Virus record (IMG/VR): IMGVR_UViG_3300009103_000015
Coordinates: 13,877-77,876 of that record
Reading direction: 5' to 3' (one strand)
Length of the DNA: 64,000 bases
Origin: a virus
Shown: in pieces, positions 1-64,000 of the stretch
Numbering within the stretch: the first letter of the stretch is position 1
Layout: each line of letters begins with the position of its first letter
Made by a program: the position numbers and the translations under genes
The notes under the pieces: generated by a model
Told to the model about the DNA's origin: nothing
The model's database searches: none
The model's input: the letters and a program-made list of their open reading frames with translations, nothing else

Positions 1-135
1 GTTAAGTGCCCACAATGTAAAACAATAACAAAAATAATTGGAGATGTAAAAGCAGAAAAGTGGAGTGAACCTTCATTCAGATGTCCTGATTGTCATATAG
101 AAATACCATTATTAATTAGAAAGGGAGCTTTGTAA
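1..135 (+). CDS. Partial small Zn-ribbon protein (5' truncated)
   Basis: Frame 1 reads VKCPQCK...FRCPDCHI, stop TAA 133-135. Confidence 0.6.
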   Translation, partial: VKCPQCKTITKIIGDVKAEKWSEPSFRCPDCHIEIPLLIRKGAL

Positions 136-136
136 T

Positions 137-559
137 ATGTTGCATCCTGAAAAGAAAGAAAAGAAAAAAGAAGTTGATGATAGAAGGGATATGGTAAATA
201 AAATGTTGATAAAGGGAGCAACTCAATTAGAAATATCAAACCAACTAAAAATTTCCATTAGCACAGTTGAACGTGATGTTAAAGTAATAAAAGAAAATGC
301 TAGTAAGTGGTTAGATGATTTAGCAAAGAAAGGTATTGTCCATGAATGGAAACAGGGATTAGAAAAGTTAAGAGAAACTGAAAGAAAACTAAATCAAATA
401 TTGCAAGAAAAGGAATTATCAAGAGATGATACACTTAGAATTTTAAAACAAAGAGATGAAAACATAGCATTACAAACTCAATTCTTAATGGATGGTCCAG
501 CACTTCACGCCATAAAATCTCACATGAATGATATAGGTGAAATTGATGACCACTTATAG
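137..559 (+). CDS. terS: Terminase small subunit (HTH)
   Basis: N-terminal HTH (GATQLEISNQLKISISTVERDV), helical C-terminus, overlaps TerL. Confidence 0.7.
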   Translation: MLHPEKKEKKKEVDDRRDMVNKMLIKGATQLEISNQLKISISTVERDVKVIKENASKWLDDLAKKGIVHEWKQGLEKLRETERKLNQILQEKELSRDDTLRILKQRDENIALQTQFLMDGPALHAIKSHMNDIGEIDDHL

Positions 560-2330
560 AAGTAAGATTCAAACCTTCGTTAAAACAAATACGAATTGGT
601 TAGATGACGAAGAAGAACTTCCAGAATTACCAACTGATATTAAACAATGGATTAACGTAGCAAGACCTTTTGTTGAAGGTCAACAGATGAGAAGAAGTTT
701 TCTAACGATTCCATTTTGGGAAGCAATCTATGAAGATAAGACACAAGACATAATGGTTGTCGCTGGAAGACAGGTTTACAAATCTACATTCGCAACAGAT
801 ATTCTAGCAAATTATACTACCAGTAGAAACAATATTTCAGTTTGTTATGTAAGTTATGATGATGTTAACAGAAACGCTTTCAGTAATCAGAAATTAAGAG
901 TTGGAACGTTTCTAACAAATCCTATTCTACAAAGATTTCCACGTTCTGGAAAGAGTGCTGGAAACGTAGGAGAAGTTCCACTGAAAAATAATTCTACAAT
1001 ATATGTGACAACAGATCATTGGGGTTATAGACACGTAGAAGGAAAGTCACTTCAGGTTTGTATTCTAGACGAAGCACAATATCATGATATACAATTCTTA
1101 CCTAAATTGCAAGAAGCTATGACTGCAACGAAAGGAAGATTATACATTCTAGGAATTGGTGGAGAAGCTGGTTCTCCATACGAAAGATTATGGAATGATA
1201 CTGATCAAAGAGAATGGATTTACGAAGATGAGAATTGGAGAGATAAGTTGAAGTTTGATAAACATGGGTTAGTGATTGGAGATTATATGAAAGATATTTT
1301 GAAAGGTAAATGGAAATCAAATAAACCTCACAATAAACTCTTTCATGGTTATCATATTCCACAATACATAGTTCCAACAATACCTTTGACAATAGATGAT
1401 GCTGTTAAGAAATACAAACTACATCCAAAGTTCTCGATAGAATGGAAGAAGAAACATAATCCAACTTCAATATTCAATTCTCATGTTCTTGGTGGATTCT
1501 TCCACGCTTTGAGAAGACCTGTCACTAGGGAAATGGTAGAAGCTTGCATGGAATCTGATAAAGTATTGTTAACTCCAAGCCAGATAGCTCAAATCAAAGA
1601 CAAACAACAAAACAAAGTTAAGATTGCATTAGGAGTTGACTTTGGTAGCAGTCCTTCAAAAAGTGCAACAGTAATCTGTATTCTAATTCATTGGAGAGAA
1701 ACTGATAGATATCAAATGGCATTTATGGAAAAAAGACCAGCAGAAAATCAGATGGATCAAGCACAATACATAACAAAGTTGTTTGGTAAATGTAAATGTG
1801 ATATAGGATTCGGAGACTTAGGATATGGAGCAATTCAAGTTAAAACAATTCAAGATGGTGGAGCAGATAGAACTTCTGGAGAAATATTTGAGGGAGTGAC
1901 ATCTCAAAGATTTGTAGGTTGTAGAACCGTTGGAGATGAAAGTAAACCTATGATGAGATATGATAAGAAAGTAGATGAACATGGAGAGGTCACAGGTATG
2001 ATTAAACTAGACAAGACAACTATAATCCAAGAGTTCATAGATTTGTTAGAAACTCAAGTTCCAGATAAGAAAGAACCTGAAAATGAAAAGCTAGCAAAAA
2101 TGAAGTTAAGAATACCTAGTAAGAAGGATTGGGAAACAGATTGGTTGATTGATGAATTTTGTGAGATAACTCGTAGAGATCTAGATGAAATGGGAGATGT
2201 CGAGACAGGTGTTGATAAACGCATGAAAGTCAGGAAACTCTTCAACCATCCTAGAGATTCTACAATGTCTGTGATTTATGCAATGAAAGCTCTAGAATTT
2301 ACGAGTGAATGGCATTGGGTTTCAGCATAA
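537..2330 (+). CDS. terL: Terminase large subunit (ATG at 546 is an alternative start)
   Basis: Walker A-like AGRQVYKST, Walker B CILDEAQ, RNase H-fold nuclease motifs LGVDFG / GDLGYG / HPRD. Confidence 0.88.
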   Translation: MKLMTTYRSKIQTFVKTNTNWLDDEEELPELPTDIKQWINVARPFVEGQQMRRSFLTIPFWEAIYEDKTQDIMVVAGRQVYKSTFATDILANYTTSRNNISVCYVSYDDVNRNAFSNQKLRVGTFLTNPILQRFPRSGKSAGNVGEVPLKNNSTIYVTTDHWGYRHVEGKSLQVCILDEAQYHDIQFLPKLQEAMTATKGRLYILGIGGEAGSPYERLWNDTDQREWIYEDENWRDKLKFDKHGLVIGDYMKDILKGKWKSNKPHNKLFHGYHIPQYIVPTIPLTIDDAVKKYKLHPKFSIEWKKKHNPTSIFNSHVLGGFFHALRRPVTREMVEACMESDKVLLTPSQIAQIKDKQQNKVKIALGVDFGSSPSKSATVICILIHWRETDRYQMAFMEKRPAENQMDQAQYITKLFGKCKCDIGFGDLGYGAIQVKTIQDGGADRTSGEIFEGVTSQRFVGCRTVGDESKPMMRYDKKVDEHGEVTGMIKLDKTTIIQEFIDLLETQVPDKKEPENEKLAKMKLRIPSKKDWETDWLIDEFCEITRRDLDEMGDVETGVDKRMKVRKLFNHPRDSTMSVIYAMKALEFTSEWHWVSA

Positions 2331-2370
2331 TAAACAATGGATATTTATTTATCAACTTAATTAATTAATT

Positions 2371-2646
2371 ATGGATGAAATCCTAGAAAATAAGATATGT
2401 CCTAGATGCAACAAGAATGAATTAGAAGAAGATGGCAGAAATGCTGTTTCTAGAAGAGATAACAAAACTCAAATTTGTTCGAGTTGTGGGGAACGAGAAG
2501 CTTTCTGTGATTATTTCAAATACAGTTCGCTTCCAATATCAGAAATAAATGTGGAAAGAAATTTCCATAAGAAAATAGAAAGACCATATTCTAAATATAG
2601 AAGCTGGCATAGAAAAATAGATGAGGGAAGACAATGTCAAGTGTGA
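2371..2646 (+). CDS. Small Zn-finger protein
   Basis: CPRC...NAVSRRDN...ICSSCG. Confidence 0.65.
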   Translation: MDEILENKICPRCNKNELEEDGRNAVSRRDNKTQICSSCGEREAFCDYFKYSSLPISEINVERNFHKKIERPYSKYRSWHRKIDEGRQCQV

Positions 2647-2969
2647 CACTTCCTGAATACAAAGTCTATTCAGATAAAGGATATGGAGTGACAGAAGAAA
2701 GTATTCAATACTTAGAAACTCTGAAAGGGAAACTTGGTTCTATACGAAACATAAACATTGATCAGAACAGAGAAATGTCTATGGAAATTGTATGCGAAGG
2801 TGGATTAGTTCTTCTTTCAGGTTGCAACTGTGGTTATGGTGGAACTGGTCCACATGGTTCAATAAAAGTTCTAAAGATACTTGGTTTCAAAAACCCAAAA
2901 AGATACGAAGAACAAATCTTTGGAGAAGGGTGTGTAAGAATTGAAGTCAGAGAAAATGTCAGATACTAA
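2634..2969 (+). CDS. Hypothetical protein
   Basis: Coupled ORF with GCNCGYGGTGPHG motif. Confidence 0.55.
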   Translation: MSSVTLPEYKVYSDKGYGVTEESIQYLETLKGKLGSIRNINIDQNREMSMEIVCEGGLVLLSGCNCGYGGTGPHGSIKVLKILGFKNPKRYEEQIFGEGCVRIEVRENVRY

Positions 2970-3570
2970 CCCACTTCCAAAAGATTACGAAGTTCATGTG
3001 ATTGGAACTCCTGAAGGAGCAGATAAAGTAATTGCTCTAGATAAAGAAGGAAATCAACTCAATGATATTGAAGATGGAAGTGTAGAAGGTTTCTGTTTCA
3101 TAAAAAAACTTAGAGATGAATCTCCAGAGTATGATAGAAAGTTATGGAATGAATTAATTCGTATTGGTAGAAGAATTGAACCAAGAATTGAAGGCGAAAC
3201 TTTTGGTCAAAACAATCTAAGTAAACCTTTCATCAATGCAATCATGGGAACTCTACAATATTATGGAGCATCTGAAAAACAATTAAACCAAACCTTTCAA
3301 GACTTAGCAATCGCAAGATATAGAATATGGGATTGGCTTGGAATGTGTTATACTGGAGCTCTATGGGCTAAAGGTCAAACTTTCAAATGTATAGAGAACA
3401 TGGTTAAGTTATACATCTGCCAAGAAAATGTTGGTGGTTTCTGCTGGTGGTTGAGAGGTCATGACTTAGACATTGAAGAACCTCACAGATGTGGAGATTG
3501 TATAAACCAATATAGAAATTGGATGAAAGATGTCAAGACTAAAGGTTTAAACCCAAATGACTTTAACTAG
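2941..3570 (+). CDS. Hypothetical protein (ATG 2956 likely)
   Basis: 209-aa ORF, genome-typical codon usage, C-terminal HxCxxC. Confidence 0.6.
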   Translation: MKSEKMSDTNPLPKDYEVHVIGTPEGADKVIALDKEGNQLNDIEDGSVEGFCFIKKLRDESPEYDRKLWNELIRIGRRIEPRIEGETFGQNNLSKPFINAIMGTLQYYGASEKQLNQTFQDLAIARYRIWDWLGMCYTGALWAKGQTFKCIENMVKLYICQENVGGFCWWLRGHDLDIEEPHRCGDCINQYRNWMKDVKTKGLNPNDFN

Positions 3571-3578
3571 ATATAGAA

Positions 3579-4166
3579 ATGGGAACTGATATTTACTTAC
3601 ATTGGGATAACCAATCCACAGACGAAGCAGATAAACAGATAACAGGTTTCAGTATCGGTCATGGAAATGTAGGTTATCTTCGTGCATCAATAGGAATGAC
3701 ACAAGAAAATCAATTTCTTAGAATGATATTCCCTGAAATATATTGGAAGGGAGAGATATCTGAAGCTGATAAATGTGAATACTGTCAAGGTGATGGTTGG
3801 AATGAAACCAGAAAAGAAGAGTGTAGCGAATGTAAAGGAAGTGGTCAGAAAGATGGTGTATCAGGAATTAGATTTCAATTTAATTCTGCTTCTATGATGG
3901 CACTAGCAATATCATCTAGACTATATCTTGCACATGGAATAATGGGAAGTAAAATGCCTGAAGAAGATATTCCTAACAGTAAAATGTTAGAAGCTATACT
4001 ACACGCAGTTGCAGGCAAAGATACAAAAGTTGAAGTTGCTGACATGAATCAACCTGAAGATTTCTTTTCTAAGATAACTTGGTTGAAATCTGTAATAGAT
4101 TTCTTCTATTTAGGATTGGAAAAAGAAGAACAAGGTTTGAATCCGAAGGTGTATATCTCATGGTAG
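3579..4166 (+). CDS. Hypothetical protein with DnaJ-type CxxCxGxG Zn motifs
   Basis: CEYCQGDG and CSECKGSG. Confidence 0.6.
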   Translation: MGTDIYLHWDNQSTDEADKQITGFSIGHGNVGYLRASIGMTQENQFLRMIFPEIYWKGEISEADKCEYCQGDGWNETRKEECSECKGSGQKDGVSGIRFQFNSASMMALAISSRLYLAHGIMGSKMPEEDIPNSKMLEAILHAVAGKDTKVEVADMNQPEDFFSKITWLKSVIDFFYLGLEKEEQGLNPKVYISW

Positions 4167-4737
4167 AACAAATACAAATACAACGTAAGAGTGGTGGTGG
4201 AAAAGATAGAACACTTTCCTACCTCTGCTTTCGTGGTGGTCACATAAAGTGTAAAGGAAGATCATGCACTTGTGATTGCCACACCCAATAATTTTTTTTA
4301 GATAATTTCACACGAATTGAAGAACCAATTCGTGAACCAGAACCAAAGATCATCAATACATATCATTTTTCAAATTCGTGCCTATTAATTAATAAAGATA
4401 TTTATAGAAAGAATACATAAATAGATTGAAGGAAATGTCCGACCAGATATTGACTACACATGAAGCAGAAGTGTGCGAAGTATGCCAAGATCATTGTGAA
4501 ATGAGCTCGATGGGTCAACTTCTAATCTGTAAAGAGTGTGGTTCTGTCAAAGATGCTGAATGAGATAATTCATTCTCAATACTAATATGACACAAAGTCG
4601 TATAGTATTCTAGTGGCAACCATACTTAAATTTGAAGATAAGAAAGATTTTGTAGTCTATTTAGAATACATACTTAAATATGAAAACTTGGATTGATCAC
4701 GAACATTATATAGAAGTAATTTATTTAGAAATTAAGT

Positions 4738-5217
4738 ATGGCAAACGCCAAGACACGCAAACACAAAAGACAGAAGAATAAGCAAGACTATATTAGACAG
4801 TTTGATGATTTAGATTTAGAATTAATCCACACTCTAATAAGATCCTATTCAAAAATACTCAAAATAAATAAACCTGTTTCCTTAGTAGATAAGGAACAAA
4901 TGGCATCATTATTTTATTTTCACATGAATAAAGTTGAAAGAGAAAAGAATGTTAAAGAATTAGACTATATTTTTGGTTCAACATATCCTGATGATAGAGT
5001 AGTTTATTTGAACCCAAGACTTTGTAAGAGAAATTATCAAAGTTTAGTTGATACATTAATACATGAATTATTACACATCAAATATCCTGAAAAAACTGAA
5101 GAACAGATACTTGAATTAGAAAGACAGTATTCTGGAAGGTATGATTATAACATAAAGAATAATGAAATTTTAAAGAAAGAAGGCTTAACTCAAAACTGCA
5201 AGGTGATTAAATTTTGA
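4738..5217 (+). CDS. HExxH zincin-like metalloprotease domain protein
   Basis: TLIHELLHIKYP; TTATATA about 25 nt upstream of the ATG. Confidence 0.6.
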   Translation: MANAKTRKHKRQKNKQDYIRQFDDLDLELIHTLIRSYSKILKINKPVSLVDKEQMASLFYFHMNKVEREKNVKELDYIFGSTYPDDRVVYLNPRLCKRNYQSLVDTLIHELLHIKYPEKTEEQILELERQYSGRYDYNIKNNEILKKEGLTQNCKVIKF

Positions 5218-6056
5218 AATCTGCTAAAGTAAAAAGAACAGTTTTCATAAACGATACTCACGTTGGAAGTAATGTAGGGTTAATGACAGATAGTGCAGAA
5301 CATGAAGGTGGTAGAAGTGTTGGTATGACATATCAACAAGGATTAATGTTAGATCATTGGAAAGAAGTAGCAAAGAAATGGAGAGATCCTGATTGTATAG
5401 TTTTGAATGGAGATTTGATTGATGGTCCAGCAAAAGCAGATAGAGGAAGTTCTGTATGGACAGTTGACATGGATAATCAAGCTCAAGAGTTCAAGAAACT
5501 TTTCAAGATGTGGGGAAAGCCTAAAAAAATCTATGCAGTAATTGGAACTCCATATCACGTAAACATTGATGCAATTAAAATTGAAGAACAAATAGCAAGG
5601 GATATTGGTGCTGAAAGAGAAAACAGTAGATATGCAACTGAAGCTAAACTAATCAATCTTGCTCCTGATTCAACTTTCAAAACTGATAAAGAAAGAATAG
5701 TTCACGTAGCACATCACATGGGTTCAACTAAAGTTTGGATGTATCGTGGAACTGCTCCTAGTAGAGCAATGGCTATGATGATGTTAAACGAATCACATTT
5801 CCTAGAACGTTCAAGAAAGATATTCGGAATTATAAGAGCTCATGTTCATCATTATTGGCAAGAGAAATCTTCTAGTAGATTAATGCAAGTATTACCATGC
5901 TATCAATTACAAACGCCTTTCATGTATAAGATAATGCCTGAATCACCTCCTGATTTGGGAAGTGTTCAATTCAACTTTCATGAAGATGGAACTTGGGAAG
6001 ATGAGTATGCTCCATTGAAAACTAAGATTACTAGAATGAAGGTGAACCAAGCTTGA
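5214..6056 (+). CDS. Calcineurin-like metallophosphoesterase
   Basis: DxH (NDTHVG), GDxxDG (NGDLIDG), GTPYH, HH, AHVH motifs. Confidence 0.78.
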   Translation: MKSAKVKRTVFINDTHVGSNVGLMTDSAEHEGGRSVGMTYQQGLMLDHWKEVAKKWRDPDCIVLNGDLIDGPAKADRGSSVWTVDMDNQAQEFKKLFKMWGKPKKIYAVIGTPYHVNIDAIKIEEQIARDIGAERENSRYATEAKLINLAPDSTFKTDKERIVHVAHHMGSTKVWMYRGTAPSRAMAMMMLNESHFLERSRKIFGIIRAHVHHYWQEKSSSRLMQVLPCYQLQTPFMYKIMPESPPDLGSVQFNFHEDGTWEDEYAPLKTKITRMKVNQA

Positions 6057-6283
6057 ATACTGATGGACCTTCTTTCATTGATCCAGAAACAGGATTATTT
6101 GTTCTAACATTACCAGATTGGGAAGCTCTTGTCACTAAAGTTAGAGAATTAGAAATCAAAGTTCAGACTTTGGAGAAAGGAATTGGTTCCAAGTAGATGT
6201 ATGTGTGAATGTGGTTGTATGTCTCCCTTAGAAGATTCAAATAAATTGTTATGTGAACATTGTAAAAAGAAGGAGTGTCCATT

Positions 6284-6496
6284 ATGGGAATAGGAAGATG
6301 CAAAGGAATTTGTGATTCTCATAGAATACCAAAGACTAAGTATCATACTCATCATTATTGCAGATCATGTGAATGGTGGATTAAACAAGATGATTGTCAT
6401 AGTTCAAGATGTCCTTGCTGTGGAAGTTTAGTTTCAACAAGACCAAGAAATTCAAAGGCAAAAGAAAAATACAGGATGTTAGAAATTGAAGGGTAA
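6284..6496 (+). CDS. Thaumarchaeal-type small Cys-rich protein (paralog 1)
   Basis: CKGIC...YCRSC...CPCCG...RPRNSK; similar to 46380..46592. Confidence 0.65.
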   Translation: MGIGRCKGICDSHRIPKTKYHTHHYCRSCEWWIKQDDCHSSRCPCCGSLVSTRPRNSKAKEKYRMLEIEG

Positions 6497-6791: not shown

Positions 6792-6801
6792 TTCTAATAT
6801 C

Positions 6802-7056: not shown

Positions 7057-7173
7057 GAAATGTAATGAGTGGAAACCATACTCGTATTATTTTGATGATA
7101 GATTTAGAATGTGTGTTGACTGCTATGATTCATTGAAAATTATACTTAAATAAATTACTTCTAAGAACATATT

Positions 7174-7458: not shown

Positions 7459-7576
7459 GTAGAGGTTATTGTTGTTTTCAATGTGGTTGTTGCACAGATG
7501 AACCAGAAAAAACCTGTTCATGCAAGTGTCATGGTCATTGAAAACATAAATAGATGTATAATGGAGTAATTTTGAA

Positions 7577-7903: not shown

Positions 7904-8782
7904 TTGATATACATGGTAATTCTTTCAAAGAAAGATGGAATCACAGATATACCTTCTTGTGTTATAACAGATACCTATGCAAATGAAGGATTAGTTTACA
8001 ATGAAGGAGTTCAATTTTCAACAGACTTAGAAATAGATGAATGGAAACATAAATGGAATCCTGAAAAAAGAGAGGGAAAAGATTACGGATATGTCACATA
8101 CAAATTATTGAAAGGTAGAGAATCAAAATCATTTCCAAATTCTAGTTTTGAGCATAAAGCATTAACCGTAGCATTGAGAACATGGGGATTGAGAACAAAG
8201 AATATTAGATTCAAAAGAATTTACAATGAAAATGAAGTTGCAGATATTGAAGTAAAATTTGAAACTAGGGAAGAGAATGATTATTTCAGAGATAAACCAA
8301 CTGTTCTAGCATACGCATATTTTCCTAATGGAAAAAAGATTGGTGGAGATATGGTATTCAATGATTCTATTTGGTGGTCAGAAGATGGAGAATCAGTAAA
8401 TGCACATGAATTAGATCCTGATAATTATCCAGCAGATACTAAAACCCAAATAAAGACATACAATCTAGTTCACGTAATGATACACGAAGCTGGTCACGCA
8501 TTAGGCTTGAAACATCAAACCAAATGTAAAGAATGTGTAATGTATCCTTATTATTCTGGAAAGGTTGTTCTTCATGATGATGGAGATAGAATGTTTAGAG
8601 TTCATGGTTCAGAATACCCATTGACCAAAAAAGCCTACGATTATTATGTAAAGAATGGATATACTCCAGAACCAATAGAAATGCCACACGATGTTGATAG
8701 AATACAAAGTTTCTATGGAAAAAGAACCTTAAGTCAAAGAATTATTGATTATTTTAGACGTAGAAATGAAAGGAAGTATTAA
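7904..8782 (+). CDS. Matrixin (peptidase M10) zinc metalloprotease (ATG 7913 likely)
   Basis: HEAGHALGLKH (HExxHxxGxxH), Met-turn VMYP, VLAYAYFP, GGDMVFND, DVDRIQSFYG. Confidence 0.88.
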   Translation: MIYMVILSKKDGITDIPSCVITDTYANEGLVYNEGVQFSTDLEIDEWKHKWNPEKREGKDYGYVTYKLLKGRESKSFPNSSFEHKALTVALRTWGLRTKNIRFKRIYNENEVADIEVKFETREENDYFRDKPTVLAYAYFPNGKKIGGDMVFNDSIWWSEDGESVNAHELDPDNYPADTKTQIKTYNLVHVMIHEAGHALGLKHQTKCKECVMYPYYSGKVVLHDDGDRMFRVHGSEYPLTKKAYDYYVKNGYTPEPIEMPHDVDRIQSFYGKRTLSQRIIDYFRRRNERKY

Positions 8783-40505: not shown

Positions 40506-41798
40506 ATGGTAAAAGAAACAAAAAAGAAAGAAACAAAAAAGAAAGCAACGGTTAAATCAAAGAAAGAAGATAAAGAACCAATGACGGAAAATACAGAAGT
40601 AGAAACAACTGAAACCGAACTCACTGAAACTGAAGTAGAATCAGAAGATGAGGTTAAGAAAAAACTACTTAGAGAAATGCTGACAACGAAAGAAACAAAA
40701 GATCCTGAAGAAGTTGACGAAATTAAAAAACAGGAACTTGAAATCGAAGAATTTGACATAGCAAAACTAGATGGAGTTGGAACTGTTCGTAAGAATAGAT
40801 TGAACGAAGCTGGTATTCATACTGCTATGGATATTGTCACTGCTGGTCCAATGCCTTTGGCAGAACTAACTGGAATGGAAGTTGCTATGACAGAAAAGAT
40901 GGTTAGAAAAGCAAGAGAATTTTTAGAAGCGAGTGGTGCTATTAGAAATTCATTCATGAAGGCAAGTGAACTCAAAGAATACAGAGACACAAAAATAAAT
41001 TCTAAAAGATTGAAAACAGGTTCATCAGCACTTGACAATTTGTTAGGTGGTGGAATAGAACCACAAGCTGTCACAGAGTTCTATGGAGTTTATGGTTGTG
41101 GAAAAACACAGATTTGTCATAGTCTTGCTGTAAGATGTCAATTACCTGAAGATCAAGGTGGTTTGAATGGAGAAGTTGTATGGATAGATACAGAAAACAC
41201 GTTTAGACCAGAACGTATCGCAGACATTGTTTGTGAGAACGAATTGATACCTATCAAAAAACGCAAGAAAGGTGAAAAAGCTATTCCAGAAAATCAAATG
41301 GATTTAGTAAAGTTTTTGGACAGAATAACTGTCGCAAGAGCTTCTAGTGCATCTCATCAGGAATTAGTTTTAGAACAGATGGCACAACAACTCAAACTGG
41401 AATCTGAAGATAAGAAAGATGGAGATCCAAGAATTGTTCTTGTGATTGTTGATTCATTAACAACTCACTTTAGATCAGAATATCTAGGTCGTGGACAACT
41501 TGCTCCAAGACAAGCAGAGTTAGGAAAGTTTCTACATAAAGTATCACGAATAGCAGAAGTGTATAACATTGCTGTTGTTGTGACAAATCAAGTATTATCT
41601 AATCCAGATCCCTTTGGAAATCCAATTCGACCTGTCGGTGGAAACATCGTAGCTCATACTTCAACGTATAGAATTTGGTTAAGAAAAGGAACTAAAGGTA
41701 AAAGAGTAGCAAAGATGGATGATAGTCCAATGCACGCCCAAAACGAAGCAGTCTTTGAATCAGATGTTCGTGGAGTTGTGGATTCAGATGGAACTTGA
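40506..41798 (+). CDS. radA: Archaeal-type RadA recombinase with charged N-terminal extension
   Basis: HhH LDGVG, GGGIEPQAVTEFYGVYGCGKTQ, IDTENTFRPERI, IVDSLTTHFRSEYLGRG, VTNQV, GGNIVAHTSTYRI; GGAG upstream of ATG 40506. Confidence 0.95.
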   Translation: MVKETKKKETKKKATVKSKKEDKEPMTENTEVETTETELTETEVESEDEVKKKLLREMLTTKETKDPEEVDEIKKQELEIEEFDIAKLDGVGTVRKNRLNEAGIHTAMDIVTAGPMPLAELTGMEVAMTEKMVRKAREFLEASGAIRNSFMKASELKEYRDTKINSKRLKTGSSALDNLLGGGIEPQAVTEFYGVYGCGKTQICHSLAVRCQLPEDQGGLNGEVVWIDTENTFRPERIADIVCENELIPIKKRKKGEKAIPENQMDLVKFLDRITVARASSASHQELVLEQMAQQLKLESEDKKDGDPRIVLVIVDSLTTHFRSEYLGRGQLAPRQAELGKFLHKVSRIAEVYNIAVVVTNQVLSNPDPFGNPIRPVGGNIVAHTSTYRIWLRKGTKGKRVAKMDDSPMHAQNEAVFESDVRGVVDSDGT

Positions 41799-48783: not shown

Positions 48784-50091
48784 ATGAAAGCAAAAACAAA
48801 AACAAAACAATCCACTCAATCAGGTGGAAGTAGTGGAGAAGTAATGCCTGAAAAGAAAGTGACAATAGTAAAAGAAGCCGAAAATAAAAAAGAAGTGATG
48901 GGCGATTATTTGAAAACCATCGCTGATACTATCTTCGGTGGTAAAGAACTTGATGGAAATGTAAAACGTTCTTGTCAAGCAATTTACCAACAAGAGTTGA
49001 AGAACGGTAGAAGAAAGAATCCTGTCGTTAGTAAAGATGGAAAGATATTAGATCCTTCCAAATTCAAAAGACTAGTGACACGATATACTAAGTTATTGAA
49101 TACTGTTGACAAGACAGATCACCCAGCAGAAGTTTCAGTAGGTTCTTCTAATGGAAGTTCTTCTAATGGAAGTTTAATGTCAGTTCAAGTTCCAGTTGAT
49201 CATACTAAGTATATTGAATTAAACATTCCACACTACGTTGAAGTTCATAGTGAGTTTAAAGTATTTGATGCTCACATGAAAAGTGGTATTCCACTTTTAA
49301 TTCAAGGACCGAAAGGTATTGGTAAGACACTTGGCTTAGCAAAATACGCTGAAAAGAAAAGATGTCCTATCATAGAATATGATTGCTCTGAAGGAACTAA
49401 GAAGTATGATCTTCAAGGAACTAAGACTGGAGTTGCTGGTGGAGTGACTCCATTCGAGTTAGGATTCATTCCAAGAATCATAGAATGTGCTAATCAATTT
49501 GGTATGGCTATTCTTGTTCTCGAAGAACTTAACGCATTAACTCCAGCGATGCAAAAACTTCTAAACCCATTACTCGATTGGAGAAAAGGAATGTATATTC
49601 CAGAGATTGGAAAACGTTTCAAACTTAATGATGGAGTTAAACTTGGTATATTTGCAACAACCAATCCAGCATCTTATCAGGCTTCCAATGATCTTAACGA
49701 AGATCTTCAATCAAGATTCAGTATTTGGAAATGGAATTATCCTAACGTAAGACAAGAAAGAAAAGCAATTCAATGGCGTGGAGTTGATACTAGTATTCAG
49801 AAAGGTATCATGCTACTTGCAAAGAACACCAGAGACTTCGTAGAACAACAGAAGTTATCATACGCATTATCAACTAGAGATATTCAGAAGTTCATTGATG
49901 CCTATGTTTCTTACGAAGAAGATTCCGTAGAAATACTTAGGTTATGTTTAGACATGAATGTTATTTCCTTCTACGACGAAGTCGGTGAGATATCAACAGT
50001 GAAAAGTAGAATTGAATCTGCATTTGGTTCTAACATCTTTACTGCTAAAGGCGACGAAGCATTGGAAAATGCTTCAGATGAGGAATTATAG
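48784..50091 (+). CDS. MoxR-clade AAA+ ATPase (CbbQ/NorQ/CobS-like)
   Basis: Walker A GPKGIGKT, Walker B ILVLEELN, ATTNP sensor 1, LQSRF Arg finger, LSTR sensor 2. Confidence 0.88.
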   Translation: MKAKTKTKQSTQSGGSSGEVMPEKKVTIVKEAENKKEVMGDYLKTIADTIFGGKELDGNVKRSCQAIYQQELKNGRRKNPVVSKDGKILDPSKFKRLVTRYTKLLNTVDKTDHPAEVSVGSSNGSSSNGSLMSVQVPVDHTKYIELNIPHYVEVHSEFKVFDAHMKSGIPLLIQGPKGIGKTLGLAKYAEKKRCPIIEYDCSEGTKKYDLQGTKTGVAGGVTPFELGFIPRIIECANQFGMAILVLEELNALTPAMQKLLNPLLDWRKGMYIPEIGKRFKLNDGVKLGIFATTNPASYQASNDLNEDLQSRFSIWKWNYPNVRQERKAIQWRGVDTSIQKGIMLLAKNTRDFVEQQKLSYALSTRDIQKFIDAYVSYEEDSVEILRLCLDMNVISFYDEVGEISTVKSRIESAFGSNIFTAKGDEALENASDEEL

Positions 50092-55500: not shown

Positions 55501-58450
55501 GTATGTTTATCAAGGTTCAGTTATTGGTAAAGTGACAAACTTGAATCCAGAAGAATGGTTTGGTAAAGTTGAACTTTCAAATATGCCTGAATTTGCAGAG
55601 TATGGATATTTAGATCCAGATGCAAAAGTTATAGCAGAAGATGGAAAAGTGTATGAAGCACCAAAGAAACCACAATTCCCACATGGAGATGCATAATAAA
55701 TTGTCATCTAAAATATCTAAAGAAGGTGGAAAGACTTTCTTTGATGGTAAAGAATTATTGCATTGTGAAATATGTGATAGAAACTATACAGGAGAACATT
55801 CAGCTTCTGCTTGTTCTATGTATGTCAAAATCAGTAGAGATATCAAAGAAGAACATGAGAATGATAAAACACTACAATTCATTCCAAGATCTGATGGTCA
55901 TGGAATAAATAGGTATGATGAGTTGAATCAATCACTTAAGAAACAAATAAGTGAAGATGAGATTAGATCTCTATTCAATTTGAGAAAAACTATCAATACT
56001 CTAGATGGAGATATTCATTCATTACTAAAGAATGGATTAAGCCTAGAAGATCTAGATAACATTGTCACAGACTTTACTGTAATCAACAGATGGGTTGAAG
56101 ACTTTGTAAGATGGAGAGATTCATTGGAGATGCAAAATGACTAATAACAACACAATGCAGTTCAAACTTGCTTGGAATCTAACAGGTGAAAAAGATACTG
56201 CTGTTTACTTTGACACTCCAGTGATACCTTTTGGTAGAATAGAAGCATTAGGACAGAAGATTAGAATTGTCGCAGATAAGATAACTGCTGGTTGGGAAAA
56301 GCATTGGCAAGAAACCTATCAAGGATTGAAAGATGATCCAGAATACAAAAATTGGGATACGACAATTCCACGAGCTCTTGTTGTAATACTTCATGTCAAC
56401 GATGATGAGTTGATAAGAACACAAGATAATACTTTACCTAATCAGTTCCCACAATGCTTCCATGAATTATGCTATCGTTTAGCAGAAGGACTTGAAGCTA
56501 TGAAGTATGAACTATCTCCAGAAGAAAGAGATGTAGTTGAAAACGGTGGAATATTAGAAAGGGAGAATGGTGTCACAATGATGTCAACTGAAACAGGAGA
56601 TAAGATAAGTAGTGAGGTAGATGGAAATGAATGAAGAAACAAAAACAGATAAGAAAACTATTGTTCAAACAGGACATAGAGTTTCTATATACTTAGCAAA
56701 CAATACAACTTCGTTTGGTAAAGATATGTCAATAGAATTACATTCTGAAAATGAAGATACAAAAACTTTACTAGGTTATGCAGAAGCATTCATTGAAAAA
56801 CATAGGAGAGATAACAATGGATGAAGATGAAAGACATGAAGACTATCCTACAACAGAAGAAGAGTGGGAAGCTCTTGAGAAAGAGAAAGAACTAGAAGCA
56901 CAGAAATGGAATGATTACTGTCGTAAAGTAGCAAAAGAAATACGATGGTTGAAGGAGAAGAAACAATTATGACAAAAGAAGTAATAAGAAAAGTAGATAA
57001 GGGAAGTATTCAAGGCGAATACATTCTCAAAAACACAGATCCTGACAAGAAGAAAATTATTTTTTCTAGCGTGGTATGGTATGATCCAGAATCCGATAGA
57101 TATACCTTCAAGTCAGAATCAGATATGAACGGAAACTTAGTTTCTGGAGATATTGTATCTCACAAACTGATACAAGATTTACTAAGTATTAGCAAGTGGC
57201 GTATGCAACATCTAGAAGAACAACATCACAAAGAAGCAGAAAACAATTTCGCAACAGATCTAAACGAGGAGAAAGATGAAAAACAAAACTGAAGATATTC
57301 TTGTGGAAGATAAGATAACTTGCGAGTATGTGGAAGATGGAAAAGTATGTGGAGAGAACATAGAAAATGAACACTATCAATATAGAAGCATGGGATTCTG
57401 TCAGAAACATTACAATCAAAATGCAGATGATCTTTGGGAAGAATTTCTAATGACAAGGGAAGCGTGTAGATAATGAGTTTATCACAAGATGACTATTCAA
57501 AAAGCAGAATTGTCAAACAGGAAAACTTTGGTCAATACTTTATTTCAACTGTAAGATTGCCTGAAGCATACAGATTTGAATTGGAAGGTAGAAAGTCATG
57601 GACATTAGGAAAGTATGAAACAATGATTTCTCTAAATGGAGAGTGGCTTGATTACCAAGAAAGATGCGATACTTTACAACAAGCAAAGATACAACATCAA
57701 GAAGCATTGTTATGGGTGATGTTAAAATGACAGAAGAAGATCATACCTGTCCAATATGCGAAGGAAGTATTGATAGAGAACATTATCTATTCGTAGTAGA
57801 AACTATGATGGATCCAAAGAAGATTCAAGCCTATATGAATAAGGAATGGACTTTTGAAATATGGAAAGAATCAAAGAAGGAGAGTTTGACTTGAATATTC
57901 CAACTGAAAATGCTTTACTTGACACTTTGAATTGTGGTGGAGATGGAATACGATATCTAAAAAGTATGTGGGAAGATATGATTGAAGCATTATGGGATGG
58001 TTCAATTCCAACTCCATCTTTTCGTTGGGGAAAACCAATAGATATGTTTGAAGAGTTTTACGAGAAAAGAATAAGCAAGAGTGACTTTGAATATTTCATC
58101 AATACAGAGTTTAATCTATCAGAACAATACTTCTGGAGTAATATAGTCAGAGGAAACGTAGATGATAGGCATAAACCTTTGTTTGATTGGTGTCTTCGAA
58201 GATACGATAGAGATGCAGAAGATTCAGCGAGAGACAAATATGAAATGGAGCATGATCTATAATGAAAGACGAAATTAAAGACGAGATGTCAGAAAAACTG
58301 TTTGGAAGAAAGTTTACTGAAAGCAGAAGTAGTAATGTCTGTGTTTCATGTGGAGAACAATTAACTCCATTCAGAGATTCTACATCTAGAAGAGAGTGGG
58401 AAATATCAGGTATGTGTCAACGGTGTCAAGATAAGGTGTTTGGGAGGTGA
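52538..58450 (+). other. Array of about 20 small coupled hypothetical ORFs (probable early/host-interaction genes)
   Basis: Overlapping or abutting ORFs of 60-250 aa, frequent GGAG/GAGG upstream. Confidence 0.6.
55179..55484 (+). CDS. Stand-alone type II KH domain resembling the N-terminal domain of ribosomal protein uS3
   Basis: VQKYL...IEL...RVVIHGTKIGHIIGKRGWILKLLT...FTLKE; IGKRG = GxxG loop. Confidence 0.65.
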   Translation: MGYSDDMKEKPVEQQLGFRKSMRILNEEKVQKYLDEVFEFEPHVKTIELLKPDEHGYRVVIHGTKIGHIIGKRGWILKLLTDTVNCKFSISVRFTLKEMEQ

Positions 58451-58569
58451 AACTATGAAAGAATGTGATAACTGTGCAGAAGAAGTAGAGTGTGTAGATG
58501 AGAACAACATCTGTTCACAATGTTCTTCAGCGTTCCAAGAGTTTGAAAACTTTGACGAGGAGTTAAAAA

Positions 58570-59145
58570 ATGACCGAGATTAAAGTATGGATTCTTGCAG
58601 GTGTTAGTGGGTGTGGTAAATCCACATTCACTAATGTTTTGAAAAGCGAATTGAATGGAAAACTTAACGTATGTTCAACTGATTCTTACATTGATGATTA
58701 TTGTAAAGAAAACAATGTTGATTATCAGGAAGCATACAAACAGATACAGGAAAAAAATCTATTCAGAAATGCAACTGCTAAATATTATTCTGATATAGAA
58801 GACAGTATCAAAAGTGAAACTGATTTCGTGGTAGATAGAACTAATCTAACCAGTGGTGCTAGAAAACATCTCATAGAAAATCTAAGAAATACAGCTAAAG
58901 TATTAGGACACGAACTTAGTATTAGAATTGTGTTCTTTGATATTCCGAAAGAAGAGTTGTTAAGGCGAAATGGTTTGAGGTCAGAATTGATAGGAAAGTT
59001 TATTCCACCAGAAGTTTTACTAACACAAATGAAAACACTTGAAAATGTAAAACATGATGAAGGTCATAACATCTTAAAGAAAATGGATGAGTATGAAGAT
59101 CCAATGATAGTGACAAGAACTTGTAAGGAGTGGTTATTAGAATGA
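58570..59145 (+). CDS. P-loop kinase (AAA_33/polynucleotide-kinase-like)
   Basis: GVSGCGKST, CSTD, VVDRTNL..R, RNxxR lid, IPPEVL. Confidence 0.78.
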   Translation: MTEIKVWILAGVSGCGKSTFTNVLKSELNGKLNVCSTDSYIDDYCKENNVDYQEAYKQIQEKNLFRNATAKYYSDIEDSIKSETDFVVDRTNLTSGARKHLIENLRNTAKVLGHELSIRIVFFDIPKEELLRRNGLRSELIGKFIPPEVLLTQMKTLENVKHDEGHNILKKMDEYEDPMIVTRTCKEWLLE

Positions 59146-59263
59146 TTGTTGAATGTAATTTATGTGGTTGGGAAACTGAAGATGATAATATCTATGGAAA
59201 ACAAAGACATGAAGAATGGCATGATGGAAGTCAAGCTAAGAAACACGCATCTCAAAATAAAAT

Positions 59264-60055
59264 ATGGGGGAAAGTAAAATGGGCGAAGAAGACGTTCCAA
59301 CAATGAATCCTTATGATTCTTCTGATAGATATGATGATTATAATGATGGAGATCAATGGACACAAGAGGAATTAGATGAAATGAGAGATATAGAAAAGAT
59401 GCATAAGAGTGGAGATGTCTATAAGACATACGAAAATGTTTGTCCAGAAAACAACACTCAAAATTATACTAAGGGTGAAAAGACTGGATGGAAACTAGGT
59501 AGCGAGAATCAACCTCATTTCAAATGTGATTGTGGTAATATGAGTTATGAAGAACCATGTCATATTAGTGGAGAAGTCAATGGAGTGTATAGAAATCCAT
59601 GCACACAGTATGAAAATCATCAACACTTTGATCGTTCATTACATAGTGATGCCTTTTGGCTAATCAACGAATACATTACTAAGTTTTCAACCAACAAAAC
59701 TGTAAGTGAGAAAGAGATTGATCTAGTAAGAACTATTCAGAGAAGAAATTGGACTTTATCTTCTAATGAAGTTCTAGCTATCTGTGCTTTGATCAAAGGA
59801 AGAAAATTCACAAAGACCGAAAAGGAAGTTTTGAAGAAAGGTGATATGCCTAAAGTTATGGATATGGAAATCAACTTAGATGATTGGTTCTTAGATGATA
59901 TTCAAAAATTCACAAAGAGAGCAGTAAAGAGCTGTTTGACTTTAGAAGAAGAATCATTTCTAGGAACTAATAAGATGGACAAACTTATACTAGATATCTG
60001 CAATAAAGTATTCCAAGAATTATACAGAGAGGTTAAACTGAAACAAAATGATTGA
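59264..60055 (+). CDS. Hypothetical protein
   Basis: 263-aa ORF with CDC..CH..C..H cluster. Confidence 0.55.
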   Translation: MGESKMGEEDVPTMNPYDSSDRYDDYNDGDQWTQEELDEMRDIEKMHKSGDVYKTYENVCPENNTQNYTKGEKTGWKLGSENQPHFKCDCGNMSYEEPCHISGEVNGVYRNPCTQYENHQHFDRSLHSDAFWLINEYITKFSTNKTVSEKEIDLVRTIQRRNWTLSSNEVLAICALIKGRKFTKTEKEVLKKGDMPKVMDMEINLDDWFLDDIQKFTKRAVKSCLTLEEESFLGTNKMDKLILDICNKVFQELYREVKLKQND

Positions 60056-60435
60056 CAGGTTTATTAGGAAAGAGGTCAAATAAGTATATGGCTAAACTAC
60101 CAAGATCTGGAGCAAGACGTGAAGTGGCAGATCATGTGATGAAAGGTCTAACAAAAGAAGGACATGATAATTTGAGAGCAATTCAACCACAGGTTCTTGT
60201 TTCATTAGATGATGATACTTTCTATTGGAGTGTTAAAATAATATCATTGCATGAAGATACTTCTGGAGTTGGAATACAAAGAAAGTATGAAGAAGGTTTT
60301 GAAATTGTTGAAGATTCAAAAGGTAAGTTTTCTACAAAATTGAGAGTTATGAAACCAACGAATAGTCTAAAAAAATTAACTGTAAAAAAAAGTTCAAAGA
60401 AATTACCTTTAAAGGCACATGGAAGAAAAGGATAA
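60052..60435 (+). CDS. Basic hypothetical protein
   Basis: 127-aa coupled ORF, TTG start. Confidence 0.5.
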   Translation: MTGLLGKRSNKYMAKLPRSGARREVADHVMKGLTKEGHDNLRAIQPQVLVSLDDDTFYWSVKIISLHEDTSGVGIQRKYEEGFEIVEDSKGKFSTKLRVMKPTNSLKKLTVKKSSKKLPLKAHGRKG

Positions 60436-60582
60436 GGCAATTATTGCAAAAGCATTAGCTCTAACAATGCCAATTTCAAAGTATGAAAATGAATCAGAAT
60501 GGTATGAAGATTTTAAGAAGATATATAGAAAAATACGAAAGAGTGAATAGGGTTTATTTAGTGATTAATTATAATATTGATA

Positions 60583-61347
60583 ATGGCTTATAAGAAAAAA
60601 ACTTCAGTAGCAGATCAGAAAATAGAAAGCGATATTTATTTCAGATACCGAAAGGCACAGAATCGTATTCTAGAAACTGAAAGATTAGGAACACTTCATG
60701 TAAGTGATCTAAATTCTCCATGTGTGAGAAAAGTGTATTATTCTAAGACATCTCCGAAAAGAGAGATGGACACAGAAAGTGCAAAGGCATTAGTATTTGG
60801 TCAGATGTTGCATAAAGAATTAATTCTAGAACCAGAAGGAAACGAAGTCACTCTGGCATGGGATTATGTAAAAGATGAACCTGTCGATGCTGTAAAACTT
60901 AGTAAGAAATTAGATCCTAACGATCCAAAATGGTATGATATTATAATTGGAACGATAGATGATTTGATTACTGTTGGAGATGATGTTGTGATTACAGATA
61001 AGAAAACGACAGGCAGTATTGATTACTTTAAGAAATATGGTAATGCTAGTGAATCTCATGTTTCTCAAATCAATAAATATGCAGTTCTTTTGAAGAAATG
61101 TAAGGGAATAGAAGCAACGAAAGGTTGTGTTGTCTATATTTCATCTACTATGACAAAAGATCAATATGATAAACCTACAATAATTCCATTTGATTTAGCA
61201 GATAGAGAAGAAACTGAAAAGGAAATGATTGATCAGGCTAAGAAGATTAAAGAAGCTATGGTTAATGAAATCAAGCCTGAAAGGACTAAATGTTTCTTAT
61301 GTGACGGTATGTGTCCTCATGCCACGTTTTGTTTTGATGATGATTAA
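60583..61347 (+). CDS. Solo Cas4-like PD-(D/E)XK exonuclease
   Basis: HVSDL..CVRK, GQMLH, GTIDD, DKKT, QINKY, C-terminal CFLC...CPH..FC. Confidence 0.8.
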   Translation: MAYKKKTSVADQKIESDIYFRYRKAQNRILETERLGTLHVSDLNSPCVRKVYYSKTSPKREMDTESAKALVFGQMLHKELILEPEGNEVTLAWDYVKDEPVDAVKLSKKLDPNDPKWYDIIIGTIDDLITVGDDVVITDKKTTGSIDYFKKYGNASESHVSQINKYAVLLKKCKGIEATKGCVVYISSTMTKDQYDKPTIIPFDLADREETEKEMIDQAKKIKEAMVNEIKPERTKCFLCDGMCPHATFCFDDD

Positions 61348-62515
61348 TGAAGCGATACGAAGTCTCTTGCAAAGAACATGGAGAAGTAATATCCACAGAT
61401 GATAGAGATGAAGTAGATAATATTATACAGAAAGATCATAAAAAGTGTCGTATCACAATGATTGAAACCAAAAGAGGTTTCAGACCTAAGAAATCTATTC
61501 TAGATCTTAGTAAGAATTATGGAGTTGGTGGAAATGCCTAATACAAGAAATGGAAATAAAGTAGTAAGAATATGTAGAAGTTGTGGTAAAGGATTGTCAA
61601 AATTTGAACCTGAATGTAGTTTTATTGAAAGAAATGAAGGAGTGTTAGATTCATGGTTTTAGATAATAATGAGATTAGAGAAATACATGAGAAGGAACAT
61701 ACATTTCTAACGGTTATAAAATCTGGAAAAGGAACATTCACATACTGTAAAGAATGTCTGGAGATTCAATATGGCTAAGACTTTGAGAGATTGGGAAATG
61801 GAACAGATGTTTGGTAAAGAGAAGAAAGAAAGTGGCACAAAGAAAGAAGAGAAGATACCAGATGTGGTTTGTAGAACCTGTTGCAGTAAAGCGACAAAGA
61901 AATTAGATCTTAAGATAGATAAAAGATTAGGATTTGAAGCAGAAGTTCTTCCAGTTTATTTATGTGAAGAATGTAATAATGAGATTATGAAAGATTGTGA
62001 AATTAGAGCAGAAAGGGATCGTAGAAAGAATGGCAACTAAATCACAAGTAAGAAAGAAATTATTAGAACTTTATAGAGAACGAGATATACAAATTAACAC
62101 CAAAGAACATAACGAAACTAGAGAAACTGAAGTCCAAGCACAGATTGATATACTGGTTTGGGTATTAAGTAATAAGAAAGGTGAATTACAAATATGAAGA
62201 TGTATGAAGATGAAGTCGTATGGAAGAAACATTATGAAGATTGGGTAAGAATACTACCAACTGTCACTAATGATTATAGAAAGAAATTGTTCGAGAGGTT
62301 GATAAAAGAGTATGAAGAAATGTCCAAGATGCAATAATGATTATGACGGTTATTGGCAAGAATGCGATAAATGTATAGAGAGTGTTTATCCTGAAAAGTG
62401 AAAAGAGTTCAAATCAATGTAAGATTGATTTTATAGCATCACAGATTAGAGAGAATAGAATAACCTATGAAATATTATTAAGGGAATTAAAGAAAGAATT
62501 AAAGGAGTTCCAGAA

Positions 62516-62926
62516 ATGAAATTAGCAATCGTAGGAATAAACGGTAGAAATCTAGATAAGATAGATAAACTGAAAGCCATGAAGGTAATTAGCACAATTT
62601 ACAACGATAAGGTAAAAGAGAACAAAGATCCAATTTTACTAAGTTTTAACAATCCTAGAGGTGGAATCTCTGCTCTAGTTGACGTATTCTCATTAGAGTT
62701 CAAAGCAGAAAATAAGCAGTATGATTTAGGAGAATCTATGAAAGAATGGAAAGAAGCACAGAAGAAGATAGCAGAAGATTGTGATCAATTATACTGTCTA
62801 ACAACAGCAGTAAAAGACAAACCATGTTATCATTGTTTAACATTGGATCATGAGAGAAATGGTGGGTGTTATGCTAAGAAAGAAGCACAAAGATTAGGTA
62901 AGAAAGTAAAGTTGATAATACTATGA
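62516..62926 (+). CDS. SLOG/DprA-like (YspA-related) protein
   Basis: KLAIVG..R, PRGGI, IAEDCDQL, GGCY...AQRLGKKV. Confidence 0.5.
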   Translation: MKLAIVGINGRNLDKIDKLKAMKVISTIYNDKVKENKDPILLSFNNPRGGISALVDVFSLEFKAENKQYDLGESMKEWKEAQKKIAEDCDQLYCLTTAVKDKPCYHCLTLDHERNGGCYAKKEAQRLGKKVKLIIL

Positions 62927-63120
62927 GCTGGTTTAGTAATGAACCTAGAAACCCACCTAGAAAGAAGATTAACTGTGTCACGTGTGGTAAATCATTCAAT
63001 ACTCCAATAAAGAGTGACGGAACTATACGAATAATACATTGTGAACAGTGTAGAAAGAGAATAAGCAAGGGTCTAGGCTAAATTATACTTTAATACAATC
63101 ACATACAGATACTCATTAGA

Positions 63121-63258
63121 GTGTCAGAGATTACTAACGGTGTTAATGGGAAATCTAGCTCATTAAACAAATTTTATTGCTACTATCTACCTTACAAGTA
63201 GATAGTATGCTTATTTTTTTTGAAGGTTAACCCTCAAAACCATGCTCAACTATTGAGC
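63121..63258 (+). ncRNA. Candidate structured small RNA / hairpin cluster
   Basis: Stems 63143-50/63159-66, 63181-90/63198-207, T-tract 63214-21, stem 63244-49/63253-58. Confidence 0.35.
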
Positions 63259-63296
63259 TTTAATATATTTATAAACTAAAAACACTCAAGAACTCT

Positions 63297-64000
63297 ATGG
63301 ATAAAGCCAAAGAGGATTACGAAAGAATAATTGCAAAATTTGATTCAGAGGTTTCTAGAGCATTAGAAAGCCCACATGATGATTTTGATGAGAATGGCGA
63401 TGATGATTCAGAAGATATAGAAAAGAATTTCAAACCAGCACAACCTGAACCAGAACATTCTGCAACAGTAGATATGCAAGGTCCAGTCGCTAGAGATTCA
63501 TACAAACAAGATGAAATTGTAGATAAGAATCCAATGTATTCTTACGATGGTAAAAAAAGAGAAGGAGTTTATGATGCTAACAAAGATAGAAAAGGAAGCA
63601 ATGAAACAGTTTACAGATCAAGATCAGGATTAATTAACGGAACTGAAACCTATGAAACAGTAGATGTAGATTTCAGTGAAACAGATTCAGCAGTAGAATT
63701 TACTTGTAATTGTGGTGTTCGTGTCACAGAAGCAAATCTACCAAAACACATGGAAGAAGCACATGGTAGTAAATTAACAGAAGCAAGATACAAGACTTAC
63801 AAAACTCAAAACAATATTGGAATTAACGAATCAGATGCTAACGTAAATGATATTGGCTTAGGTAAGAAAACCAGAGCTGGAGAATCATTAGCAAAAGAAG
63901 ATATTCATTTTGGAATAAGCGATTACACTTCAGGTGGTAGTCCATCAGAACAACAAGATGCATTCAATAGTGCATTTGGTGTAAGCACTCCAGAAGAAGA
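63297..64000 (+). CDS. Acidic protein with C2H2-like finger, 3' truncated; possible internal head protein
   Basis: Open from ATG 63297 to the window end (MDKAKEDYER...CNCG...HMEEAH); TTTATAAA 21 nt upstream. Confidence 0.7.
   Translation, partial: MDKAKEDYERIIAKFDSEVSRALESPHDDFDENGDDDSEDIEKNFKPAQPEPEHSATVDMQGPVARDSYKQDEIVDKNPMYSYDGKKREGVYDANKDRKGSNETVYRSRSGLINGTETYETVDVDFSETDSAVEFTCNCGVRVTEANLPKHMEEAHGSKLTEARYKTYKTQNNIGINESDANVNDIGLGKKTRAGESLAKEDIHFGISDYTSGGSPSEQQDAFNSAFGVSTPEE

Follow-up and report, generated by a model that had tools for sequence, protein, structure and literature searches.

Why should the proteins of a virus contain not a single Ala-Ala or Pro-Gly pair? The question is raised by IMG/VR virus record IMGVR_UViG_3300009103_000015, a single contig of 77,876 bp, and specifically by a stretch of 64,000 nucleotides of it, here called the window (positions 1–64000, equivalent to 13877–77876 of the genome). 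An earlier sequence-only reading of the window had claimed that both dipeptides are missing where tens of each would be expected, and had attributed this to avoidance of the DNA words GCNGC and CCNGG, strong enough to change amino acids. The absence is borne out. In the window (81 open reading frames, ORFs, with 19,858 amino acids) Ala-Ala is found 0 times against 48.3 expected and Pro-Gly 0 times against 37.7, and in the whole genome (101 ORFs) the figures are 0 against 54.8 and 0 against 45.5. A third dipeptide, Trp-Pro, behaves in the same way (0 against 8.6 in the window and 0 against 10.9 in the genome). These three are the lowest of all 400 dipeptides in the window ORFs. On the genome counts, the Poisson probability of a zero is approximately 1e-24 for Ala-Ala and 1e-20 for Pro-Gly. 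The remaining dipeptides that begin or end with Ala, begin with Pro or end with Gly lie between 0.29 and 1.54 of expectation. Trp-Pro is naturally low in proteins of the host lineage discussed below (12 against 21.4, a ratio of about 0.55), and the corrected viral expectation is about 6.

The genetic code links these dipeptides to DNA words. Ala-Ala cannot be encoded without GCNGC because all its codon pairs spell that word, and Pro-Gly cannot be encoded without CCNGG for the same reason. Trp-Pro cannot be encoded without GGCC, because TGG-CCN always holds it. By the same reasoning from the code, the loss of these three dipeptides is the sole unavoidable effect on protein, as the other words missing from this genome (listed below) can be avoided synonymously.

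The DNA words themselves were counted, as the sequence-only reading had proposed, using three null models: a dinucleotide model, a maximal-order Markov model, and a synonymous-codon shuffle that keeps the proteins. GCNGC and CCNGG are at zero throughout the genome, window included. The genome-wide expectation is about 35 for GCNGC and about 46 for CCNGG (28–38 and 37–49 over the various counts made), and in the window they are the most depleted of the 256 patterns of the form XYNZW (CCNGG 0 against 36.7, GCNGC 0 against 28.4). GGCC is also at zero, against 34 in the dinucleotide model or 12.6 in the maximal-order Markov model. Under the synonymous shuffle the out-of-frame sites are missing as well (GCNGC 0 against 5.3, CCNGG 0 against 12.3, and, for a further word, GTAC 0 against 156). 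No frame on either strand contains the words, which makes the result independent of gene calling. The result also bears on the idea that selection acts on the proteins, against Ala-Ala and Pro-Gly as such: such selection does not account for words that are also missing outside the reading frame and from the non-coding strand.

The sequence-only reading named two banned dipeptides, and the full set is larger, since Trp-Pro (through GGCC) and about 18 further words have to be added. The purged words total about 20, the further 18 or so being palindromes. GCGC, CCGG and CGCG are at zero in the window. GTAC is found 0 times against 134–159 expected, GAATTC 0 against 40, CAATTG 0 against 30–41, GTMKAC 0 against 28 and CTRYAG once against 73.5 (the last two by codon shuffle). 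GTWAC is at zero against about 100 (GTAAC 63 and GTTAC 47), CTSAG is close to zero (CTCAG 0 against 34, CTGAG 1 against 27), as is GASTC (GACTC 1 against 21, GAGTC 2 against 22), and ACATGT, CATATG, CCATGG and CAGCTG are absent or nearly so. GATC, CTAG, AGCT, TGCA and CATG are near expected levels, and GGNCC is present in the genome. Unlike GTWAC, GTSAC does occur (62 and 30 copies), and CTWAG (82 and 77 copies) occurs where CTSAG does not. TCGA is partly depleted (51 against 162 by codon shuffle, or against 96–111 by Markov models), and low counts are also seen for CCNNGG (5 against 37), GGNNCC (10 against 37) and GCNNGC (9 against 28), so that the purges look graded rather than all-or-none.

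Most of the missing words are familiar as restriction sites. The prototypes are Fnu4HI for GCNGC, TseI and ApeKI for GCWGC, ScrFI and LlaMI for CCNGG, EcoRII and MvaI for CCWGG, HaeIII for GGCC, RsaI for GTAC, HpaII for CCGG, HhaI for GCGC, EcoRI for GAATTC, MfeI for CAATTG, SfcI for CTRYAG and AccI for GTMKAC. GTWAC and CTSAG are not known to have a Type II prototype, and these two words may point to enzymes of ammonia-oxidising archaea whose specificities are so far uncharacterised.

The genome has a GC content of 33%, and a composition or mutation bias, including CpG depletion and deamination of methylated cytosine, might be thought to produce such gaps. GC-rich 4-mers are indeed scarce in general, and the expectations for GCSGC and CCSGG are only 1–5. 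However, all the nulls expect from tens to more than 150 copies of GTAC, GTWAC, GAATTC, CAATTG, CCWGG and GCWGC, while GGNCC, GATC and CTAG are present, and relatives of equal GC and hosts of similar GC keep the words. Composition is thus highly implausible as the explanation, and was rejected as contradicted by the nulls and the relatives.

The loss also shows in conserved protein motifs. The proteins relevant to this point, and to the identification of relatives, are the following.

537..2330, + strand, large terminase subunit (TerL), matching phrog_675 with E 8.7e-28.
8321..8332, + strand, F-P-N-G of a matrixin-like protease (coordinates from alignment numbering; alignment to 1cxv_A and 1qic_A).
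40764..40781, + strand, helix-hairpin-helix motif K-L-D-G-V-G of a RadA/Rad51 recombinase (Rad51 Pfam match, E 1.1e-72).
49660..49677, + strand, T-N-P-A-S-Y of a MoxR/CbbQ-type AAA+ protein (AAA_5 match).

Cellular RadA proteins contain on average 2.45 Ala-Ala and 0.89 Pro-Gly per protein, and the viral RadA contains neither. The Pro-Gly of the helix-hairpin-helix motif, found in 37 of 55 cellular RadA, is Asp-Gly in the virus, and three columns that are Ala-Ala in 18–30 of the 55 are MT, KA and FL. In the AAA+ protein the N-P-G of CbbQ, NorQ and midasin is replaced by N-P-A. In the matrixin, the P-P-G or A-P-G that stands just before the conserved GGD/GD motif in MMP-13 and MMP-3 is P-N-G. 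The sequence-only reading had suggested replacement of Pro-Gly in several motifs: for the AAA+ protein and the matrixin this is correct, while the Walker-A motif is uninformative and was dropped as an example, since CbbQ, NorQ and midasin have GPxG there. It had also proposed aligning homologues to look for systematic substitutions. The alignments of RadA, the AAA+ protein and the matrixin provide such cases, but comparison with viral relatives gives only 14 orthologous positions for Ala-Ala and 5 for Pro-Gly, too few for a substitution spectrum. The replacements at these positions are varied (Ala-Ala to VA, AV, AG or AS; Pro-Gly to SG, PA or PD).

The ends of the record carry a direct terminal repeat of some 120 bp, the record's first 100 bases being found again at genome position 77757; IMG/VR classes it with direct terminal repeats, with a CheckV completeness estimate of 100%. 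Nearly all ORFs are on the + strand. There is a weak SPP1-type portal match and a VWA protein, and most ORFs have no assigned function. TerL homologues at 50–58% identity include NKOR_00575 of Ca. Nitrosopumilus koreensis AR1, whose integrated element has been described (PMC6563490), and proteins that are attributed by their sources to Nitrosarchaeum metagenome-assembled genomes (MAGs). The closest protein homologues (P0002–P0004) are 74–81% identical. Searching with TerL gave matches in 11 of the 401 genomes of the order to which G001 and a 'Nitrososphaerales' MAG belong in GTDB, here called the host order, and in none of 36 genomes in the order of G002. The portal protein as a single query gave no relatives in GenBank phages or IMG/VR. 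TerL, the weak portal match and the TerL relatives in host-order genomes agree with a head-tailed archaeal virus (Caudoviricetes) of Nitrososphaerota and, judged from sequence, the virus is part of a large clade that comprises tailed viruses and integrated elements of ammonia-oxidising archaea (AOA) of Nitrosopumilaceae type. The best cellular match to the viral RadA (48% identity) is on L001 (CAZQBE010000041.1), an 11.8-kb contig binned as Flavobacteriaceae, which was probably assigned to the wrong bin and is of archaeal or viral origin.

The comparison with relatives rests on a TerL alignment, which recovered 41 IMG/VR loci, some of which are near-duplicates, so that pooled counts are not independent. 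Each lineage among them has its own set of words at zero. Pooled over the 15 loci free of GCNGC, Ala-Ala is found 0 times against 131.6 expected, compared to 165 against 159.9 in 14 tolerant loci. Pro-Gly is found 0 times against 76.8 in the 9 loci free of CCNGG, compared to 137 against 168 in 19 tolerant loci, and Trp-Pro 0 times against 33.8 in 19 word-free loci, compared to 21 against 35.9 in 15 tolerant loci. Four loci (L082, L103, L104 and L110) have lost Ala-Ala and kept Pro-Gly, and L092 has lost Pro-Gly and kept Ala-Ala. Each of these losses can occur without the other, and neither is seen in a locus that retains the corresponding word. The TerL tree shows at least 7 changes of state for GCNGC and 6 for CCWGG. 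The sets are also modular in their other members: L082 lacks GCNGC, GTAC, GCGC and CGCG, and is rich in CCNGG and GGCC.

The closest relative is L076, with 93% identity in TerL and 86.5% DNA identity over 13.5 kb, and nearly all the zeros are common to the two. As L076 comes from another dataset and shows the same pattern, while other relatives differ, an assembly artefact was rejected. GTAC differs between the pair, with 11 copies in L076 (38 expected) and none in the virus studied here. Six of the L076 sites can be aligned to the virus, where four show changes of synonymous type (GTA to GTT, TAC to TAT), one an indel, and one is outside called genes. From this comparison the GTAC purge looks recent. 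A different word, AGCT, is found 0–1 times, against up to 59 expected, in L077, L083, L091, L093–L097, L105, L107 and L108. AGCT is an N4-methylcytosine (m4C) motif that is reported to be near-fully methylated in marine Thaumarchaeota, and in some hosts it may be part of a restriction system rather than the target of an orphan methylase.

The relatives also help to define the exact targets. In the virus under study, GCSGC and CCSGG are expected just 1–5 times, so that its DNA by itself does not tell GCNGC apart from GCWGC, or CCNGG apart from CCWGG. If only GCWGC were targeted, Ala-Ala could escape as GCC-GCN or GCG-GCN, but this route is closed because CCGC (1 against 10) and GCGG (1 against 21) are nearly absent. 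Similarly, Pro-Gly could escape from CCWGG as CCS-GGN, and this is closed because CCGG is at zero. Every spelling of the two dipeptides is closed, whether by one enzyme or by several, and in this genome GCNGC is indistinguishable from GCWGC combined with avoidance of CCGC/GCGG, and CCNGG from CCWGG combined with CCGG. In L103, L104, L089 and L090, which have 44% GC, GCSGC is missing (order-1 expectation 7–14) despite abundant CCGC and GCGG, which establishes GCNGC itself as a target within the clade. By comparison, L089 and L090 avoid CCWGG only, and keep CCSGG at 20–22 copies. Lacking CCWGG, they spell their Pro-Gly as CCS-GGN only, and the dipeptide is retained (9 against 9.3 in L089, 3 against 5.8 in L090). 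Selection on the proteins themselves does not explain this retention through CCS codons, nor the fact that relatives have lost Ala-Ala and Pro-Gly independently, each time along with the DNA word; its probability is close to negligible, and it was rejected along with composition.

A further comparison is with the host. Host DNA was sampled from G210 (280 kb) and G429 (120 kb), in 20 segments of 20 kb each. GCNGC, CCNGG and GTAC reach or exceed expectation there, including around integrated TerL; one 20-kb stretch has 58 GCNGC against 24 expected, and the integrated TerL loci L118–L121 are not depleted. The sequence-only reading had held that finding the same absence in host genes would count against it. 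It was not found: in the parts of these samples that lie apart from the integrated TerL, the proteins of G210 (200 kb of DNA) have Ala-Ala 249 times against 223 expected and Pro-Gly 134 against 151, and those of G429 (80 kb of DNA) have 103 against 79 and 66 against 60. Together, the out-of-frame absence, the tracking of word and dipeptide in relatives, the undepleted hosts and the replaced motifs support its central claim, namely that avoidance at the level of DNA has changed amino acids.

Which defences could be responsible? C5 cytosine methylases were found in 54 of 301 sampled host-order genomes, with at most 9 matches per genome. Directly beside them are RE_LlaMI (205 bits, also matching MvaI_BcnI), EcoRII-C and, twice, RE_Eco47II. 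An EcoO109I/TdeIII-like nuclease, an HNH nuclease and HhH-GPD glycosylases are also found beside C5 methylases, and some neighbours (in L153, L154, L160, L168 and L176) matched no Pfam or NCBIfam family. The RE_LlaMI pairs lie on G227:C15 (at about 12.7–14.5 kb) and G266:C4 (at about 98.6–100.5 kb), and an EcoRII-C pair on G254:C59. The targets of these families are CCNGG for LlaMI type, CCWGG for EcoRII type and GGNCC for Eco47II type. The HhH-GPD glycosylases directly adjoin the methylases at L151, L165 and L174 in host-order genomes, where they probably act like Vsr, repairing T:G mismatches that arise from deamination of 5-methylcytosine (m5C). For Thaumarchaeota, REBASE-predicted m5C methylases have been listed for GCWGC, CCWGG, GGCC, GTAC and GGWCC (PMC11033074), and methylation of AGCT (m4C) and GATC (N6-methyladenine, m6A) is widely conserved (PMC11033074; 10.1101/2021.05.08.442635). 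Four of the five m5C words (GCWGC, CCWGG, GGCC and GTAC) are purged in the virus, and AGCT and GATC are tolerated.

On the basis of these observations, we consider it very probable that selection has purged the genome of many Type II recognition words met across the host population. We envisage a virulent-type tailed virus of AOA that would be exposed to restriction by varied Type II enzymes of its hosts. Most words would be removed through synonymous codon choice. GCNGC, CCNGG and GGCC cannot be removed in this way within Ala-Ala, Pro-Gly and Trp-Pro, and where these three words are lethal, lineages would swap one residue per pair, even in conserved motifs. It is from the absences and their statistics, their independent modular spread in relatives, the undepleted host DNA and the matching nuclease families, all observed directly, that we infer restriction cleavage as the selective agent, and similarly which enzyme acts on which word. 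No DNA methylase of PF00145, PF01555 or PF02086 and no tyrosine integrase was found in the virus, which agrees with the rule linking site avoidance to a non-temperate way of life (PMC6286503).

A number of points weigh against this explanation. The candidate nucleases are rare in the host order, with RE_LlaMI in 2 and EcoRII-C in 4–5 of 301 genomes. Of the defences that the sequence-only reading supposed in the host lineage, candidates were seen for CCNGG, as for CCWGG, in the LlaMI and EcoRII cassettes, but no nuclease for GCNGC or GCWGC was identified in the host order, there being no family model for one, and on that side the host match consists of the REBASE-predicted GCWGC methylase alone (PMC11033074). 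GTWAC, CTSAG and some other purged words were matched to no host enzyme. The host itself is placed, from sequence, at the level of a Nitrosopumilaceae-like lineage and not of a strain. Two gaps are strand-asymmetric, and are therefore not effects of restriction at palindromes: on the + strand CCCC is at zero (6.5 expected by codon shuffle) and GGGG has 33 copies, and on the coding strand GGACC has 2 copies (14.9 expected) compared to 16 for its reverse complement GGTCC (8.9 expected), so that Gly-Pro is spelt GGT-CCN. Finally, the virus encodes a Tet/JBP 2OG-Fe dioxygenase (41.7 bits, with a cut-off of 34.9) following a ParB_N protein, at genome 8671–10320 (L117:8671-10320), upstream of the window. 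DNA modification may also be in play, and the ParB_N and Tet/JBP pair may form a DNA base-modification pathway alongside site avoidance.

The dioxygenase, the unmatched words GTWAC and CTSAG and the several family-less genes beside host C5 methylases would all suit a host defence other than restriction–modification (R-M), in which the words are the targets of solitary or unknown sequence-specific nucleases, or of modification-dependent enzymes that act at sites which an enzyme of the virus or the host would modify. We regard this as improbable. The purged words are, with few exceptions, palindromes of the classic Type II kind, nuclease families of matching type adjoin methylases in the host order, and host DNA keeps the words, which implies protection by methylation. 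The abundance of GCNGC in host DNA could instead suggest that the virus, or a helper element, shreds host DNA with such nucleases while sparing its own word-free genome, and with most viral ORFs functionally unassigned there would be room for the enzymes. However, about 20 words would need about 20 nucleases, the word sets differ between relatives although the genomes are related, and no Type II-family nuclease was seen among the 30 viral ORFs (of about 100) covered by the profile and family scans. This is more unlikely still.

Avoidance of many Type II recognition words thus remains our preferred explanation, and its mechanism is already known, site avoidance being textbook material (PMC6286503, PMC8410138); the virus is a clean and extreme archaeal example. 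Non-temperate dsDNA phages and archaeal viruses have been surveyed for avoidance of Type II palindromes, which are scarcer in them than expected (Rusinov et al. 2018, PMC6286503). As in the systems of that survey, the depletion described here is of palindromes, virus-specific, stronger in non-temperate elements, and achieved mostly by synonymous removal. It differs in the complete absence of about 20 words from 78 kb, and in a purge that extends into the protein sequence. The survey makes no mention of amino acids or codons (PMC6286503), and a review of codon-level effects notes that a nonsynonymous contribution 'cannot be excluded' (PMC8410138). A search of the open-access literature found no paper on dipeptide loss through site avoidance, which is not proof of novelty.

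A bacterial parallel can be found in published genomes. Staphylococcus phage K (Kayvirus) and the Rosenblumvirus phages lack GATC (Sau3AI) and GGNCC (Sau96I) (PMC6346686). In phage K (first 50 kb) we find GATC 0 times against 125 expected, GGNCC 0 against 33, GCNGC 0 against 17 and GGCC 0 against 29, and correspondingly Gly-Pro 0 against 16, Ala-Ala 0 against 20.5 and Trp-Pro 0 against 3, with CCNGG and Pro-Gly normal. The banned words force the loss of dipeptides by identical logic, a consequence that is not stated in PMC6346686. Phage K differs in having a bacterial host, and in having GGNCC rather than CCNGG in its word set. What the present case adds is an archaeal host, a modular set of relatives, the contrast between CCWGG-only and CCNGG avoidance, the host-side cassettes and the host DNA controls.

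The finding would mean that host restriction enzymes can constrain the protein sequence of a virus, beyond silent codon choice. The relatives amount to a natural experiment: where CCWGG alone is targeted, Pro-Gly is recoded, and where all CCNGG spellings are closed, it vanishes. One practical consequence is that users of dipeptide or k-mer statistics, or of profile searches, should expect gaps in such viruses. Another is that purged word sets would give a free readout of host defences, which may help to link mostly uncultured viruses to their hosts. More tentatively, and in our view less probably than not, strain-variable Type II R-M could be the dominant force on the evolution of AOA virus genomes and proteomes, with the zeroed words a barcode of the R-M repertoire of the host population. 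If this is true, one could use the barcode to match uncultured viruses with their host strains and to predict enzyme specificities that are new, GTWAC and CTSAG among them, and it would measure, through the banned dipeptides in conserved motifs, the cost in protein sequence that these viruses have paid to escape restriction.

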